Shown here piece by piece: positions 49,035 to 57,380 of a stretch of DNA of 64,000 bases. The notes beneath the pieces were generated by a model. The model had not been told where the DNA came from. It saw only the letters and a program-made list of their open reading frames with translations, and did not search any database. The translations under genes and the position numbers were made by a program. Numbering within the stretch: the first letter of the stretch is position 1; the number at the start of each line of letters is the position of its first letter. Where the stretch lies: positions 1,696,001-1,760,000 of the forward strand of contig OZ242296.1 in NCBI GenBank assembly GCA_965207735.1, in the 5' to 3' direction. Source of the DNA: Candidatus Versatilivorator sp. GTDB taxonomy: Bacteria > Acidobacteriota > Terriglobia > Versatilivoradales > Versatilivoraceae.

Positions 49035-49760
49035 TCACACCTGCTTCCCCACCCACCTGACTTCGCCGAAAACCTTGGCGCCGCCAGGCCAGGGGACCGG
49101 GTCCCATGCGGGGTTGTCGCTGACCAACCGCCAGTTGCCGCCGGAGTCCCTGTCCATACGCTTGACCAACATGCCCTCATTGGTCTGGAGAACAAAGATT
49201 CGGCCCTCCTTGAGCTGCGCCCGGTTGCGGTCGACCAGAATGGCGGAGCCGTCGGGGAGGGTGGGCGCCATCGACTCTCCCTTGACGCCGACGACAGTGC
49301 ACTGCTGGGGGTAGAGGCCGTTGCGGTCGAGCCAGCTTCGAGTAAAGGTGATATAGCCGGCCACGGACTCGTTCGGCTCTTCATTGGCACCGGCAGCGGC
49401 TGCCAGCTGTTTGATCGCTATGTGGCGGTTTTCGGCCGGGACTTCCGCATCCTTGGGCCGGGGTTGGCCGAGGAGTAGGGTAAGGTCGCGCCGGATGTCT
49501 TCCCGAAGCCGCCGGGCCCAGTCGGGGCGCTTCTCGACAGCGGGCACCCCCTCGGGCGACTCGACGGGATCATCCATAGGGGCTGTCTGGAGCCGAAGGC
49601 CCAGCACACGGCAGATAGCTTCCAGCGAATCCAGGCGCGGGGAGGAGCCGCGGCGGATGTTGCGAACGGTATCGGAGCTACCGGTAGCCAGGATGGACAA
49701 GTGGCGATCGGAAACGCCACACCGATCGATTAGGTCGAGGAGGTGTCGCCGAAAACTCAT
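49035..49760 (-). CDS. CI/LexA-like repressor (HTH + S24 peptidase)
   Basis: N-terminal HTH (..VRNIRRGSSPRLDSL), AAGA cleavage-like site, catalytic VKGESM and LVKR motifs. Confidence 0.88.
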   Translation of the reverse strand: MSFRRHLLDLIDRCGVSDRHLSILATGSSDTVRNIRRGSSPRLDSLEAICRVLGLRLQTAPMDDPVESPEGVPAVEKRPDWARRLREDIRRDLTLLLGQPRPKDAEVPAENRHIAIKQLAAAAGANEEPNESVAGYITFTRSWLDRNGLYPQQCTVVGVKGESMAPTLPDGSAILVDRNRAQLKEGRIFVLQTNEGMLVKRMDRDSGGNWRLVSDNPAWDPVPWPGGAKVFGEVRWVGKQV

Positions 49761-49837
49761 GAGGTAATTATACCACAAAATCGAATAGCAAAAACAAAAG
49801 GACTTGAATCACGGTTTTATAACCGTATAGTAGCGGA
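49761..49837. promoter_or_regulatory. Divergent leaderless promoters with operator palindrome
   Basis: Minus strand: TGGTATAAT, 6 nt, ATG. Plus strand: TTGAAT-N16-TATAGT, 6 nt, ATG. Inverted repeat ACGGTT-TTAT-AACCGT at 49811-49826. Confidence 0.7.
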
Positions 49838-50137
49838 ATGACTCACCGCGAGGTTCTCCTGACCCTGTTCGAGTGCTATTGCCGGAGGGCGAATCTCAGC
49901 CAGGCGCGGGTCTCGACCCTGGTCTTCAACCACGGTGGGCGCATTGCCAGGATCCGGGCAGGGCGGGACTTCACCATCGGCAGCTACGTGCGAGCCCTGC
50001 GGTGGTTTTCCAACCACTGGCCGGAGGAGCTTCACTGGCCGGCAGGCATAGAGCGCCCCCCTCGGGCCGGCCAGCGCGGTGAGGCGGCGGCAACCGCGCG
50101 GGTCGCCGCCCCGGGAAGCGGAAAAGAGGTGGGCTAA
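49838..50137 (+). CDS. Cro-like small DNA-binding protein
   Basis: Divergent from the CI-like gene. The SQARVSTLVFNHG...RAGRD...ALRWFS.HWP...WP pattern resembles phage Cro-like proteins. Confidence 0.7.
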   Translation: MTHREVLLTLFECYCRRANLSQARVSTLVFNHGGRIARIRAGRDFTIGSYVRALRWFSNHWPEELHWPAGIERPPRAGQRGEAAATARVAAPGSGKEVG

Positions 50138-50281
50138 TCCTGCGACAAGTCCCCCCCTGTCGGGCGGAACATTCAGAGAATAACCGACTGATCGTCAGTT
50201 ATAGGCGAACCACGAATAGGCACGAAGACCGATGGACCTCCTTCAACCACAAGGTGTCACGACGTCAGGGGAGAAAGCCCC

Positions 50282-50306
50282 CCGGGAGCGCGGGCGTCCC
50301 GCCCGC
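50282..50306 (+). repeat. REP-like palindrome
   Basis: CCGGGAGCGCGGGCGTCCCGCCCGC, identical to 51100-51124. Confidence 0.8.
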
Positions 50307-50480
50307 CCCAAAGCCTCTCGCAGTCTCGGCCCTCTCCTTCACCCGGGTCGACCGGCTGCAGCATCGCAGGGAAACTGAGCGGCAACCCAAGGGACAGGAC
50401 TAGAGGCCGCTGCACGAAACGCTGACTCAGGCGGGTGCGACTTGATGAAAAATGGGAGTTCACCACAAAAAGCACAAAAG

Positions 50481-50616
50481 TCACAAAACGAATTTCTTGA
50501 TTTTCGAGTCCTCACGATCCGAAGTTGATCCCCATGGCGTCGCGTTGACCGGATGTAGGCAGATAGCGCGGAACTTGTGCGACATGTTCGGGAGTCAACT
50601 CCTTGCAGGCTTTCAG
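50481..50616 (-). pseudogene. C-terminal remnant of a GxxExxY (PD-(D/E)XK-like) protein gene
   Basis: Translates LKACKELTPEHVAQVPRYLPTSGQRDAMGINFGS*GLE/IKKFVL*, matching the GxxExxY ELK..H.AQ...YL......INFG pattern, with an internal stop and a frameshift. Confidence 0.65.
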
Positions 50617-50679
50617 TGTTCTGCTCTTTTTGTGTTTTTTGTGCCTTTTGTGGCCATTCCCGGCAATGGTCCCGCTGCT

Positions 50680-50697
50680 GAATATTGCAAAAGGCTC
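50680..50697 (-). mobile_element. Solo terminal inverted repeat of the IS5-like family
   Basis: GAATATTGCAAAAGGCTC matches the IS TIR at 17/18 positions; no partner end found. Confidence 0.7.
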
Positions 50698-50822
50698 GAG
50701 AGTGAAACAATCAGTAATCGACCATCCCTTCGCGACCTTGGTATCCCGTCGCGGTGAACCTCAGCGCCTTAGTGGCTCTTCGTCGTTCTTCGTGGCCCTT
50801 CGTGGATAAGTCTTTTTCTTTT

Positions 50823-51357
50823 GAGCCATTTGCAAAATTCTTCGGTAAGCGGAATTGATTACCGGGAAGGGTTGTGATCCCCGGGAGGTCGCGTCTGCCC
50901 TCCTCTGGATCGACGGCGGGCGGAGCACTCTCGGGACGCCGCGTTGGCCCCCCTCCGGATCAGCCTTCGCCATTCGGCTCGGCTTCTCCGACTCCCCCTC
51001 AAGGGGGGAGTGATACTTGAGCGCTGAACCAGGCTCCTTGCCTGATTCCGGGGCATGATGTAAATGATGTTCTCGGTTTAGGGTGTCGAGGATGCCCCCC
51101 CGGGAGCGCGGGCGTCCCGCCCGCACCATGTCGGGCACAGCCTTGGCCATCTCCGCCACTCGGATCGACCCGGAACTGCGCCCTGGGTCTGCTTCGGTTT
51201 GACCGTTGAGGTTGCCGCCGACAGGCCGGCACCCTTCAGCACCGGACGAAGGCTCAGCGCCAGCCAAAGGAATGGGGCATAAGGATGCAGGCGGGACGCC
51301 CGCGCTCCCGGGGGGCTTTTGGGCGGCCCGTGCAGATCCGAATTTTGCAAAGGGCTC
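50823..51357. mobile_element. 535-bp non-autonomous MITE with IS5-like TIRs carrying REP modules
   Basis: Ends GAGCCATTTGCAAAATTC / GAATTTTGCAAAGGGCTC, TTTT on both flanks, no transposase. Internal REPs at 50947-51014, 51100-51125 and 51286-51311. Confidence 0.85.
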
Positions 51358-51512
51358 TTTTGTCTCTTGTCGTTTGTTTCAGACAAGCCGGCCCCCGCCC
51401 TGCCGTGCGGATCATTCGAGAGTGAAACAATCAGAAATCGACAATCCTTTCGCGAACTTGGTATCCCGTCGCGGTTAACCTCAGCGCCTTAGTGGCCCTT
51501 CGTCGTTCTTCG

Positions 51513-53506
51513 GTAGAGTCGAGGGGAGGCGCGCCGGCCTTAGATCGAGGGAGTCGCTGTTGCCGGCGGCTTTCGCCACTCGCCGGTGCCTCAATCTCGT
51601 TCCTCGCTGCGTTTCCTCGCCCCCGCTCGTCAAACCGGACGTGCGGTTTTCCCGCATCCGGCTTTCAGTCAAGATCATGCCTTCGCCCTCGGAAGGCTCT
51701 GTGGCTTCGACCCCAGGCAAGTGAGTCCATAGGTTTTCCATAGTCTCTCGTCCGAGAAGCGCACACTCCCCCCGGTCCTCACCTTGTGCTTCCGACAGAG
51801 CCACTGACGCAGCCGCCCGCCCGCGTGGCGGTCGATCGCTCGGTAGGCCGGGCTCACCTGCCCCAGAACGAAGTAGTTCGCCCACCCGGTCATCGCCCGG
51901 TTCAGGTGTTCTACCATCTGTCCTCGAAGCAGCGTCCCGTTCCTCGGCGCCGTCCACTCGCTGATCTTGCGGCAGATGCTCTGGACGCTCGCCTGGCTGG
52001 GTCGTGTGCCGATGTAGGCTCCTTTCCCTTTGGGGCGATAGTTGCGTCCGATGCGATATCCCAGAAACCCCATCGGTTCCTCCGGACACCGCAAGCATCG
52101 GGTCTTCCGCTCGTTGACCGGTAGCTTCAGCTCCTCCATGATCCGCTTGACCGCCGTCAGCATCTCTGCCGCCGGTGCCCTGCCGAGTACACGGAAGTCA
52201 TCCGCATAGTTGACGATCTCCGCACAGAAGCGCCGGGCATATCCCAGCACCTTCCAGCCCAAAACGAAGCGCCGCATGTAGAGATTGCTGAGCAACGGTG
52301 AGATCGGGGCTCCTTGCGGTGTCCCCTTCCGCTCCCGGCGCCCTCGGTTCCGGCGGCGTCTGCCACCCTTCCCGTCGTCCTCCTCCACCGGCATCTCCAG
52401 CCATGCCTTGATGAGCTTGAGCATCCTCCCGTCACTCACGCGCCGGGCAATGCTCCGAATCAGCTCCGCATGCGGAATCTCGCCGAAGTAGTTGGACAGG
52501 TCGCCGTCAACCACCTCCTGGTAACCCCTTTGCAGGAGTTCATGCACGCGTTTGACCGCGTCGTTGGCACTCCGCCCCGCCGATAGCCATATTGCTCCGG
52601 TTGCAGGTCCGCTTCGAAGATCGGCTCCAACACCAGCAAAGCCGCCGTCTGCGCTACCCGGTCCCGTATGCAGGGTATGCCCAAAGGCCGGAACTTGCCG
52701 GGCTGTTTCTTCGGGATCAGCACCTGCCGCACCGGCTTCGGTACGTAGGTTCCTTCCCTCAGATCCCGCGCCAGTTCCCCCAGCCAGCCCTCCACCCCAT
52801 ACGCCTCGATGTCCTTGAAGCCCTCCCCGTCCACCCCGGCCGACCCGCCGTTTCGGCGTACCTGTGCCCAGGCTTCCTTCAGAAAGTCCTCTCGCCACAC
52901 CTTGTCCGACAGCGCATGAAACCGCCGCTTGGGGTCCTCCTTCGCTTTCGCATGTAGCATGGTCTGGAATTTCCGAACCCCCTCTGACCCTGTTAGACTT
53001 TTGTCAGTGGCCACGCCTTGCCTCCTTTCCATGCTGCTCTCAACTCAGGGTCCCTTCCCTCCACCGGCGTTACCCGGCTTCTCCGGTACTACCGACCCAT
53101 CCGCCACCCTGACGGCCCGGCCTGCCCCTCGCGGGGTCCCGGTTGATGTGTGCCGCATCTCCCCCAGGGCTTCCCGTGTTGCTGCCTTCTTCCCCTTCCA
53201 TGCGTGCCAGCGTCACTACCCCGACGGAAGCGGATCGGTGCCCGCGTCGCTCTCTTCCCCATCCGCCAACGGCCTTCCCCTAAAGACAGGAGGGTCGGCT
53301 TCCGTATTGTCCGTTTCGAGGCCTGCTCGACGTTCACTCGCGTTCCGGCCCGCATGCTCGCTGAGCCGCCCTTGGCGGCCCTTGACGCCAGAGTGCTTCA
53401 GACCATTTCGTTACCTCCATGATCCGCCCTGGCTGCTACCAACCGGAGCGACAGTTGTTGGGCGGGGTTCGCACCCGCCAGAAGAAGGCGCCTTTCCACG
53501 GCGCAC
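51513..53506 (-). mobile_element. Group II intron (1994 nt)
   Basis: 5' end GTGCG, 3' end CTCGACTCTAC, domain V AAGCCGGATGCGGGAAAACCGCACGTCCGGTTT (51632-51664). Removing it restores the array unit with no target duplication. Confidence 0.93.
51675..53014 (-). pseudogene. ltrA: Group II intron reverse transcriptase/maturase, frameshifted near 52580; no HNH domain
   Basis: RPLGIP..RDRVAQ, QYGYR / GRSA.DA split across frames (1 nt short of YGYRPGRSA), GTPQGAPISPLL, YADD, GWANYF; AAAGGAGG RBS before GTG at 53014. Confidence 0.88.
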
Positions 53507-53536
53507 TGTCCCTTCGTGGATAAGTCTTTTTCTTAT

Positions 53537-55023
53537 GAGCCTTTTGCAAAATTCGCAGATAGCGGGAATTTTCACGTGGGGAAAGATCAAGGAGGGCAGG
53601 TGGAAGGAGGGGCAAGACCACTGTCTGTTGTATCATGAAGGTGTCTGAACCACATGATGAACGGAGGTGGAACTTGCCCCTTAGGGAAACCCTATCACGA
53701 CACTGGTTCCGGTTTCAACGAGAGCTGTTTCCCCTGCTGGAGGAAGTTTTGGGGCCTCTGGGAGAGCGTTACCAGCGGCTGGTGCAGGTATTGGAGTTGG
53801 TGCGGGTGGAGGAGTTGCTGCCTTACAGTCGGGGCTGGCGTGGCCGGCCGCTGGAGGATCGGGCAGTGCTGGCGCGAGCCTATCTGGCGAAGTCGATGCT
53901 GGAGGTGGCGACCACGCGGGGATTGGTGGAGCGGCTGAGGAGTGAGGGGAGGCTGCGGCGGCTGTGCGGCTGGGAGAGGGCGTGGGAGGTACCGAGCGAG
54001 TCGACCTTCTCGCGGGCCTTTGCGGAATTCGCTGAGAGCGACCTGCCGGGGCGTTTGCACGAGGCATTGCTGGAGGAGACGCTGAAGGGCCACTTGGCGG
54101 GGCATGTGTCGAGGGACTCGACGGCGATTGCGGGACGGGAAAAGCCAGCGGCCAAGGCTGCGCCGGAGGCCAAGCGGAAACGCCGGCGGGGCCGGCCGCC
54201 GAAGGGCGAGCGACGGCCCAAGCGGTTGAGCCGGCTGGAGCGGCAGGGGTCGATGACGCTGGAGGAAATGTTGAAGGAGTTGCCCAAGGCCTGCGACATC
54301 GGCGTCAAGCGCAACGCCAAGGGGCATCAGGAGAGCTGGACCGGCTACAAGCTACACCTCGACGCCATTGACGGCGGGATTCCGGTCAGTTGTCTGCTGA
54401 CCTCGGCCTCGGTGCATGACTCTCAGGCAGCCATTCCGCTGGCGACGCTGACGGCAAGGCGGGTCGAGAGTCTCTACGACTTGATGGACAGCGCCTACGA
54501 TGCGCCGGAGATCCGGGCCTTCAGTGAGAAGCTGGGGCATGTGCCGATTATTGACGTCAACCCCCGCCGAAGAGCTACCTTGAAAGCCGAGCGGAAGCGG
54601 GAGGCACTGGCCCGGCGCTGTATCGGCCAAGTGACTCCCGAGGCGCGGCGCTACCGGGAACGCTCGACGGTGGAGCGGGTCAACGGACGGCTCAAGGAGG
54701 AGTTTGGCGGGAGGCAGGTGAGGGTTCGCGGCCCCGACAAGGTGAGGTGCCACCTGATGTTCGGCATTCTGGCCCTGACGGTGGATCAGTTGATGCGCCT
54801 GACGCTCTGAAGACCGGGTTGCCACCCCCAACCGCACAGCAGGTTCGCCCGCCTCAAGGCCGGGAGAGGGTAAGCTGTGCCTGCGTCCGGCGACCGCTGG
54901 CCATCCGGCCATCAGATTCGGGCTTTTTCCTTCAAAAGGGTCTTTGCAGCTGGGTAGTCACCGCCGGAACATCACTGTTGCCAGCCCAATGTCATGCCCG
55001 ATTCCGAATTTTGCAAAAGGCTC
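53537..55023 (+). mobile_element. IS5-like insertion sequence, 1487 bp, copy 2
   Basis: Same TIRs as copy 1; TTAT target duplication (53533-53536 / 55024-55027); transposase identical to copy 1. Confidence 0.95.
53635..54810 (+). CDS. DDE transposase, identical to 3062-4237
   Basis: Identical 391-aa translation. Confidence 0.92.
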   Translation: MKVSEPHDERRWNLPLRETLSRHWFRFQRELFPLLEEVLGPLGERYQRLVQVLELVRVEELLPYSRGWRGRPLEDRAVLARAYLAKSMLEVATTRGLVERLRSEGRLRRLCGWERAWEVPSESTFSRAFAEFAESDLPGRLHEALLEETLKGHLAGHVSRDSTAIAGREKPAAKAAPEAKRKRRRGRPPKGERRPKRLSRLERQGSMTLEEMLKELPKACDIGVKRNAKGHQESWTGYKLHLDAIDGGIPVSCLLTSASVHDSQAAIPLATLTARRVESLYDLMDSAYDAPEIRAFSEKLGHVPIIDVNPRRRATLKAERKREALARRCIGQVTPEARRYRERSTVERVNGRLKEEFGGRQVRVRGPDKVRCHLMFGILALTVDQLMRLTL

Positions 55024-55157
55024 TTATGTCTTTTTTCGGTTGTTTCAGGCAAGCCGGGCCCCCCGCCCTAGTGTGCGGATCATGCATAGAGTGAAACAAT
55101 CGGAAATCGACCATCCCTTCGCGAACTTGGCACCCCGTCGCGGCCAACCTCAGCGCC

Positions 55158-57380
55158 TTAGTGCCCCTTCGTCGTTCTTCGTGCCCCTTCGTGGATAAGT
55201 CTTTTTCTTTTGTCGTTTTGTCGTTTGTCGGTTGTTTCAGACAAGGCGAAAGCGACGTAGCTTCCGCCGGAGGGGGCTCCGCTCTTGCCTCCCCCGGCCG
55301 CAATCACCACGAACTGGCGCCCCGACACTTCATAGGTGGCCGGGGTTGCGTTTCCCGAGGCCGGTAGCAGAGTTTCCCACAATAGGCGTCCATCGGCCTT
55401 GTCGAAGGCCCGGAACTTGCGGTCGAAGTTGCTGGCGCCGATAAACACAAGCCCGCCCGCCGTCACAATGGGGCCGCCGTAGTTCTCCGACCCGGTCCCC
55501 ACCATTCCCCTTGCCGCCAGCTCCGGGATTTCACCCAAGGGAACCTGCCAGACGATCTCGCCCTTGTCGAGGTCGATGGCGTTGAGGATTCCCCAAGGCG
55601 GTTTCACTGCCGGGTAGCCTTCCGGATCCAGGAAGCGGTTGTAGCCGTCATGACCGTAGGGCAGGCGGTAGAGTGGCCTGCCGGCCCGGTCCGCGGGGAC
55701 CGAGGCGTCCTTGCCGTAGAGAACAAACCCCAGGATGGCCTCCAACGCGTCCTCCCCCAGGTGGGCAAAACCCGGCATGCGGCCCCCGCCCTGGCGCAGG
55801 GTCCGCCGCACCATCTCCTGCGAACGGCGTTTTCCCAGGTCCACCAGCGAGGGAAACTCCGGGGGGGCGCCGCTACGGTCCTGACGGTGGCAGCCGCTGC
55901 AGTTCCACTGGTAGAGCTGCTTGGCGGTGACGGGGCCGGCGACCGCTTCCCTCGCCACCAGCCGCAGGATCCAGGCCATCTCGCTGGAGTTGACATACAA
56001 CCGTCCCGATTCCGGATCGAAAGCTGCCCCGCCCCACTGCCCCCCTCCGTCGAAACCCGGAAAGAGAACGGTCCCCTCCAGACTGGGAGGAGTGAACTGG
56101 GGTCCGTTGCGCAGCTTGCGGAAGCGCTTCAACACCTCCCGGCGCGCTTCCGGAGTGCGGTCGGTTAACAGGTTTTCCGTCAGGTGCTGGCGGGCAAACG
56201 GAGGCGGCTTCGAAGGAAGGACCTGGGTGGCGGCCAGCCGTTCTCCCGGGACGCCGGCGACCGGAACTTTGACTTCCCTGAGCGGGAACAGCGGACGGCC
56301 GGTCACCCGGTCGAAGGTGAAGACGTGTCCGGACTTGGTGATCTGGGCCACGGCGTCAACCGGCCTGCCCTCCCTCACCACCGTCACCAGGCCGGGAGGA
56401 GCCGGCAGGTCCCTGTCCCACACGTCATGCCTGACCACTTGAAAGTGCCAGACCCGCTCGCCGGTTTCGGCCTTCAGGCAGAGCAACGAGTTGGCGAAGA
56501 GGTTGTGGCCGGAACGGTTCCCGCCGAAAAAGTCGAAAGCCGCCGAGCCGGTGGGAACGTAGACCAGGCCGCGCTGCTCGTCCAGGCTCATGCCGGCCCA
56601 GCTATTGGCCCCGCCGGCGGTTTTCCAGGCCTGCCCGGGCCAGGTTCGATGGCCCGGTTCGCCCGGACGGGGAATGGTTCGGAACCTCCAGCGGAGCTTG
56701 CCGCTGCGGGCGTCGTAGGCTCGAATGTCCCCGGGGGCGCTCGGCAGGCTCTCACCCACCGTGCTGCCGAGGATGAGCAGGTCCCGGTAGACAACCCCGG
56801 GCGTGGTCAGAGAAACGGTGATCGAATCGGGTGGCCGCCCCAGGTGGCGCCTCAGGTCGATAAATCCCCGATCCCCGAAGTCCAGGCAGGACTTGCCGGT
56901 GGCCGCGTCCAGGGCATAGAGCCGGTGCCAGTAGGAGAAGTAGATCCGTGCCTGGGCACCCCGGCTCCAGTACATCAATCCCCGAATGCGAACCCTGTCG
57001 CGGGGAGTCCCGCCCGGAATGGACGGCCGGAAAGACCAGATCTCCCTGCCGGTGGCCGCGTCAAGCGCGAAGACCCGCCCTCGGGGACTGGTGGCATACA
57101 GCCGCTCACCCACCACCAGGGGATTGCATTGCATCTCCGAGCCCGGAAAGGCATCCCCCGTATCGTAGGTCCAGGCGACCCGCAATCGGTGCAGGTTGCG
57201 GCGGTTGATCTGAGCGAGGCGGGAGTAGCGGATCTGCCGGTTGCCGCCTCCGTAGGCGCTCCACTGGTCGTGGCCCGCCCTGGGCAGTTCGCGGCCGGGT
57301 TTCCCGGTCCGTGCCAAAGGAACCCAGGCGACCGAAGCCGCAACCGCCAACAAACAGGCCAGCAGTGCACGGTTTTCCAT
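55158..57380 (-). CDS. PQQ-dependent dehydrogenase with cytochrome c domain
   Basis: PQQ beta-propeller repeats (ALDAATG..W), HDVWDRD, CSGCH heme motif and YGGP.VTAGG. The C-terminal tail is encoded by the repeat unit. Confidence 0.88.

Follow-up and report, generated by a model that had tools for sequence, protein, structure and literature searches.

A GxxExxY gene remnant between periodic inverted arms, nested among insertion sequence ends and repeats in a Candidatus Versatilivorator genome

Results

Organization of the locus

The window (the whole 64,000-nucleotide stretch of contig OZ242296.1 that was analyzed) contains about 5.1 kb of nested repeats at 50140-55235, comprising host repeat units, two units with insertion sequence (IS) ends, a group II intron, and an IS. 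The gene remnant studied here has a Cro-like gene on one side and a PQQ-type dehydrogenase gene on the other; these labels come from a reading of the open reading frames. The small Cro-like gene (49838-50137, forward strand) is divergent from an S24-peptidase/HTH repressor gene (49035-49778, reverse strand). The pair is kept in 10 of 10 relatives and has no obvious prophage genes beside it.

The remnant and its surroundings (50432-50701) are read on the reverse strand. A TCTC target site within the host repeat (50698-50701), whose far-side duplicate is present in complete copies elsewhere, is followed by the left terminal inverted repeat of a non-autonomous unit (50680-50697), which matches the IS end at 53537 at 17 of 18 bases. 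A spacer (50655-50679) places this end 25 nucleotides outside the upstream arm (50625-50654), which consists of three CACAAAA units with a 9-10-nucleotide period and is native to the GxxExxY clade of the remnant. At the deletion junction (50617-50618) unit position 81 is joined to position 325, with loss of the ATG and codons 1-81. The remnant proper (50481-50616) comprises codons 82-125 and the native stop, which falls within the downstream arm (50462-50491, forward strand), the inverse of the upstream one. Beyond it is the beginning of the right-hand segment of the unit (50432-50461), the final ~72 bases of which, including the right terminal repeat, are absent from the window copy.

The two inverted arms (50463-50491 and 50625-50653; 29 nucleotides each, with 133 nucleotides between them) are 86% complementary, and the arm region folds with z = -3.4, none of 200 shuffled sequences being equally stable. 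Searching for the two-unit arm pattern gave 88 arms, after merging, across the 5.26 Mb of the genome, whereas order-3 Markov sequence totaling 2 Mb gave two matches. An earlier note on this DNA had described inverted periodic CACAAAA arms enclosing an internally deleted gene, with only the last ~45 codons remaining and the N-terminal part lost; both points are borne out. Alignment with an intact relative shows that the deletion begins immediately ahead of the ATG, extends through the Glu of ELK, and leaves 44 codons. Microhomology is rejected as its cause, since the two sides do not meet in a clean GAAC join.

The reverse-strand reading between the arms is LKACKELTPEHVAQ...INFGS, next a TGA in frame (50512-50514) and then a one-base frameshift (an extra base near 50504). 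In the profile search that the earlier note had proposed, the frame at 50515-50622 matched PF13366 with 26.6 bits (cut-off of 22), and the remnant matched positions 74-106 of TIGR04256 with 22.5 bits (E = 1e-4), under the cut-off of 35. The GxxExxY motif and the invariant Asp-71 and Glu-81 are deleted, and Lys-83, Gln-95, and Tyr-99 are kept. The loss of Asp-71 and Glu-81 makes an active nuclease very unlikely. Judged by its sequence, the window fragment is a pseudogene piece of a member of the GxxExxY/PDDEXK_3 family rather than itself a member (the TIGR04256 score being below the cut-off and residues 1-81 missing with the motif), whereas the parent gene is a full member, with scores of 110.6 (TIGR04256) and 99.9 bits.

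The IS and the non-autonomous units

An intact IS of 1487 bp occupies 53537-55023 on the forward strand, 3 kb from the remnant, and is flanked by a TTAT duplication. Its transposase gene (53635-54810) encodes a 391-residue DDE protein. There are 43 copies with an identical protein in the genome, and 36 of these have a 4-bp duplication. The transposase scores above the Pfam cut-offs for DDE_Tnp_1 and DUF772 but below the NCBIfam cut-offs for IS1182 (117 of 270 bits) and IS5 (70 of 140 bits), and so we refer to the element as IS5/IS1182-like. It is the likely helper of the arm-bearing unit. Full-length relatives were found in 7 of 13 other genomes of the genus, all of them single- or few-contig assemblies.

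The arm-bearing unit and this IS have 18-bp terminal repeats in common, although the window copy has the left end only. The right 57 bp of the unit are 81% identical to the right end of the IS, and the part inside the terminal repeat scores better than 1000 of 1000 shuffled sequences. At the left inner end the similarity is faint and not significant (100 of 1000 shuffles were as good), which counts against reading the cassette as a passenger of the IS.

Another non-autonomous unit, which shares these IS ends and has different cargo, is found at 50823-51357 (forward strand), flanked by a TTTT duplication. Within its 535 bp are two inverted palindromes of REP-like type, matched 110 times in the genome, and a CCCCTC...GAGGGG hairpin, matched 165 times and typical of the flanks of DUF559 genes.

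The full parent unit, with the whole gene between both IS ends, is present in one relative (G012) in four copies of 570-579 bp, three of which have a target duplication. The 579-bp unit contains no transposase, its sole gene being GxxExxY. In another relative (G006) an intact GxxExxY open reading frame lies in a 582-bp IS-ended unit. From ten relatives, 60 of 206 IS-end-plus-arm matches were sampled, of which 45 were two-ended and 15 were without the right end. Target duplications of 4-5 bp flanked 24 of the 45 two-ended units (in seven relatives) versus 43 of 1980 cross-pairs (2.2%), some of the positive units (L245 and L248; three G006 copies) sharing flanks and thus not being independent. 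Internal deletions vary between the subfamilies of the unit.

Several observations weigh against the IS-passenger reading. No duplication was found for 21 of the 45 two-ended units. In this genome the automatic duplication test was passed by 5 of 14 short arm units and by none of 4 remnant units; for the window copy, which has no right end, a target duplication of its own cannot be read. In several variants flank homology shifts just outside the arm, which an arm-cutting enzyme could equally explain. Among sampled arm loci of G002, G003, and G008, 9 of 17 had no IS end nearby, though most of them resemble pieces of IS-ended units.

The exact deletion junction occurs 16 times in this genome. 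A six-frame search with the family model yielded 17 matches (E ≤ 1), among them 11 that begin at model position 74, and neither this search nor that with PF13366 detected a full-length, intact GxxExxY gene. Arms are found at 53 loci, many of them shorter pairs with other deletions, and for 48 of the 53 an IS-type end is no more than 170 bp away, compared with 1.8% of random spots. Matches to the exact arm pattern number 80, without an intact gene. Three further GxxExxY clades are represented by broken genes, each of which has a distinct arm word (G000:C1:2249924, 5017386, and 4148679; loci L001, L013, and L007, respectively); the first of these genes is cut by an IS end.

The relation between arms and gene differs in other genomes. 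Two genomes with an intact gene, G011 and G314, have exactly two exact-pattern arms each and no spare arms. In G007 and G001 there are 50 and 24 IS-end-plus-arm matches, respectively, and the sole GxxExxY match is to another clade. Given the absence of an intact gene here, the 48 of 53 arm loci beside IS ends, and the two gene-bearing genomes without spare arms, the window copy is best read as cargo of a miniature inverted-repeat element (MITE). The earlier note had taken the arms to bound the mobile unit at this site. We reject the arms as ends of the unit that moved here, since they lie inside the IS ends and it is the IS ends that the duplications flank. The window copy is probably a decayed passenger of an element resembling a MITE or a mobile insertion cassette (MIC), a known kind of element with an unusual cargo.

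Spread of the remnant within the host repeat

The element is inserted in a repeat of ~185 bp with one CACGAAG arm (50698-50822, reverse strand), which resumes at 51358-51512, 53507-53536, and 55024-55245. Over 200 copies of this host unit are found in the genome, often head-to-tail and with TGAAACAA-like words at the borders. It is a frequent IS target and here carries the group II intron (51513-53506), which has a frameshifted reverse transcriptase; 13 of the 15 near-full-length copies of this intron in the genome are over 99.5% identical. The CACGAAG units (223 starts) are single-armed, and all 38 close neighbors have the same orientation, with no inverted pairs. Within the genus, a different GxxExxY clade uses CACGAAG as its arm word. 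The suggestion that the neighboring CACGAAG motifs are variant arms thus holds for the word but not for the arrangement, the single arms running head-to-tail and never forming inverted pairs.

At the target site of the remnant the host repeat is empty in 213 cases and filled with the remnant element in 9, with 54 rows unclassified. The host flank is the same in 9 of 9 remnant copies that have a right end, and the exact TCTC duplication is kept in 3 of 4 copies with both host flanks. In G006, 34 loci were retrieved, 31 with the deletion junction and 3 without it. Of the G006 copies, 14 have a resolvable orthologous site in this genome, and the remnant is missing from all 14; the differing blocks at these sites are mosaics of 0.3-1.8 kb that reach past the IS-ended unit. 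One further G006 locus, and possibly two, is shared with this genome; 10 of the 12 apparent shared spans match in just a mosaic of ~1 kb and were excluded from the orthologous set, and 5 loci have no resolvable pair. At the site orthologous to that of the window copy the remnant is absent from all 10 relatives compared, five of which are empty (a gap under 30 bp) and five of which have other repeats. We infer a single insertion followed by copying within mosaics for the 16-copy remnant subfamily.

All copies in the genus might also be ascribed to recombination or gene conversion among repeats, with IS ends that are incidental and never transposed the cassette. The shared flanks of the 16 remnant copies and their movement in mosaic blocks speak for this, but the IS ends are immediately bordered by 4-5-bp duplications that differ from site to site, and in G006 one arm unit with IS ends is flanked by a GGTG duplication, at an orthologous position that is unbroken in G001. 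Recombination as the only process is largely refuted by these sites, and we regard it as highly improbable. The window copy was likely multiplied first by the IS transposase and then by copying of the repeat mosaic, and not by an enzyme of its own.

Intact cassettes and the hsdR-like/hsdM-like junction

In G011 an arm-gene-arm cassette without IS ends has an hsdR-like gene on one side and an N6-methylase gene on the other. Pfam gave no name for the hsdR-like fragments, which we label by their apparent helicase motifs and the adjoining N6_Mtase gene. The same junction houses 7 of the 13 closest genes of the remnant's clade, in two phyla. Of 80 metagenome loci compared at this junction, 32 have no insert, 5 have GxxExxY, 38 have an insert of another kind, and 5 are unresolved. 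The GxxExxY cassettes at the junction have at least three arm types. The other inserts that were checked include KilA-N, four-helix-bundle, and YhcG genes, the KilA-N and YhcG genes being arm-less. Our literature search gave nothing relevant on cargo at hsdR/hsdM.

Arms and fold of the GxxExxY family

A GxxExxY gene is present in 100 of 301 genomes searched. Inverted arms flank 33 of 45 full-length genes from many phyla (3 short matches of 48 having been excluded), against none of 41 controls, and 25 of the 30 best phylum-wide matches, against 1 of 29 controls. Combining both sets, arms were found at 58 of 75 full-length genes versus 1 of 70 controls.

Within this genus, four arm words go with four GxxExxY clades. 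Across phyla, the last base of the arm word changes 4 times on the protein tree versus 14.9 times when shuffled (37 representatives at 80% identity, from 109 loci of which 96 were parsed and 62 had a word). The arms therefore travel with the gene, a result that says nothing on whether the protein reads them. His at one position of helix 1 goes with words ending in G or A and is absent with words ending in T. We do not claim a residue-to-base recognition code, the basis being 2-3 changes on the tree with many columns scoring alike.

The parent protein, modeled from 44 sequences, is predicted with a pLDDT of 96.5 to have a PD-(D/E)XK fold with invariant Asp-71, Glu-81, and Lys-83. A single-sequence fold (pLDDT 61, all helix) was discarded. 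Foldseek, the only source of fold neighbors used, placed the model near Cas4 SSO0001 (E = 8e-4, TM 0.59), λ exonuclease, and Hjc. Sequence searches of the PDB with the GxxExxY protein gave no significant match, and the ESM Atlas returned the GxxExxY family only.

Discussion

In the course of events that we propose, an arm-gene-arm cassette without IS ends, as seen between the hsdR-like and hsdM-like genes, would have been the starting point. Capture between IS ends in this genus may then have given the 579-bp unit. This unit and its internal-deletion derivatives (about 190-580 bp), which are flanked by 4-5-bp duplications, would have been transposed, presumably by the IS enzyme. One derivative has lost codons 1-81 and sits in the TCTC site of the 185-bp host repeat, and this single insertion would have been copied within ~1-kb mosaic blocks, recombination among the abundant repeat modules being the most likely route. 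In the window copy the right end has since been lost, and a stop and a frameshift have arisen.

MITEs and MICs are described in PMC3129680 and PMC9330008 as IS-derived elements moved in trans. The arm-bearing unit is like them in its IS-type terminal repeats, lack of a transposase, cognate IS in the genome, short duplications, many copies, and series of internal deletions. It differs in that its cargo is a GxxExxY cassette with a second pair of inverted arms of its own, in the later spread of the remnant subfamily inside repeat mosaics, and in that the window copy has no right end. The transporter IS, as we read the term in these sources, similarly has a passenger gene between IS ends but keeps its transposase, whereas the unit of the remnant has none.

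A separate question is what moves the arms in the family at large. A GxxExxY nuclease might recognize and cut its own periodic arms and thereby spread both the cassette and gene-less doublets, as proposed for RAYTs and REPINs. Arms at 58 of 75 full-length genes, an arm word that follows the protein tree, a cassette with at least three arm types at one junction, and the predicted nuclease fold are all consistent with this. So are the doublets of G318 (Chloroflexia) and G316 (Luteolibacter), each of which has a gene of the remnant's clade. Of the sampled arms, 9 of 10 in G318 and 6 of 7 in G316 are in gene-less doublets without IS ends (L362-L390 and L364-L389, respectively). In these doublets the triple arms are conserved and the spacers vary in both length and sequence; in G318 the flanks are unrelated. 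Assembled contigs show the repeats at high depth and gave no usable excision joint, the multi-copy repeats swamping the signal.

Arm-driven movement is nevertheless opposed by the number of arms in this genus, which does not track the presence of the gene, and by the arm-less KilA-N and YhcG genes at the same junction. Furthermore, the arm word and the residues change together on too few branches to tell recognition from common descent, many columns scoring alike. In addition, no PD-(D/E)XK protein of this size is known to act as a transposase. For the family we hold arm cutting to be possible, if short of probable; as an account of how the window copy spread it is quite unlikely.

The cassette could otherwise be passive cargo moved by recombination in the conserved flanking genes, with the arms serving as binding sites or as transcript hairpins that control the gene. 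The variable occupancy of the junction (empty, GxxExxY, or other inserts), its recurrence among the closest clade genes in two phyla, and the lack of spare arms in G011 and G314 fit such a role. However, it does not account for the dispersed doublets of G316 and G318, in which the arms are conserved and the flanks unrelated, or for the many other gene contexts, and we consider it rather doubtful.

Of the three outcomes that would have refuted the earlier note, none occurred: the remnant matches the GxxExxY family, full-length genes have periodic inverted arms, and gene plus arms is present or absent at the hsdR-like/hsdM-like junction. Its comparison of gene plus arms to a RAYT/REP-like mobile unit stands as far as family arms and presence or absence at one junction are concerned; it does not extend to the protein, which is PD-(D/E)XK-like and not HUH, or to the window copy, which rides IS ends. 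Likewise, the candidate undescribed mobile system holds as an idea at the family level, where arms, junction polymorphism, and IS-free doublets in two other phyla support it, but this copy is best read as IS-borne.

The gene-plus-arms cassette is thus a well-supported unit, and its self-mobility is plausible. We tentatively suggest that GxxExxY proteins may provide the enzymes for an undescribed class of mobile DNA, in which a 125-residue PD-(D/E)XK nuclease would read clade-specific phased 7-mer arms, insert the cassette at gene junctions, and seed doublets with free spacers. In this genus an IS would have hijacked a dead cassette, which then went into the construction of large intergenic repeat mosaics, the arms of four GxxExxY clades supplying part of the material.

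REPIN/RAYT (PMC3116915) and TIRtrons/TIRYT (PMC3733652) resemble the cassettes in having a small gene between inverted repeats and a repeat type tied to the protein clade. The likeness may extend in part to gene-less inverted doublets, which are dispersed in some gene-bearing genomes (G316 and G318 but not G011 or G314), this genome having many without the gene. RAYT, as described there, is an HUH (Y1) tyrosine transposase, whereas the GxxExxY fold is PD-(D/E)XK. REPs are short palindromes, whereas GxxExxY arms are tandem 7-mers at a 9-10-nucleotide period that pair with the other arm; the doublet spacers of the latter vary freely, and in this genus the doublets ride IS ends. A Y1 transposase gave just a partial match in this genome.

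We found no description of GxxExxY arms in the literature searched, which excluded supplements and left subscription journals mostly uncovered. The available portions of PMC3424549 give the function of PDDEXK_3 as unknown, report multiple transfers, and make no mention of the arms. The passage of bioRxiv 10.1101/2021.01.26.428298 with the term names the GxxExxY domain and says no more of it, and the term also occurs in PMC12085832.

The locus presents one mobile-looking cassette nested within the ends of another element. Because an unrelated transposase can amplify arms, gene-less arm copies are by themselves no evidence of GxxExxY-driven movement. PF13366 is a large family with no known function, and clade-specific arms provide it with a defined candidate substrate, so that binding, cutting, and integration become directly testable. 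The IS-free doublets of G316 and G318 are the best test case for arm-driven mobility that we noted, and a better one than this genome. At the hsdR-like/hsdM-like junction, the four-helix-bundle cassettes (L120, L142, and L128, with L120 and L128 confirmed) have periodic flanks of their own, of the GATTGCT/CAATC and GTCCAC types, which suggests a second gene family with arms.
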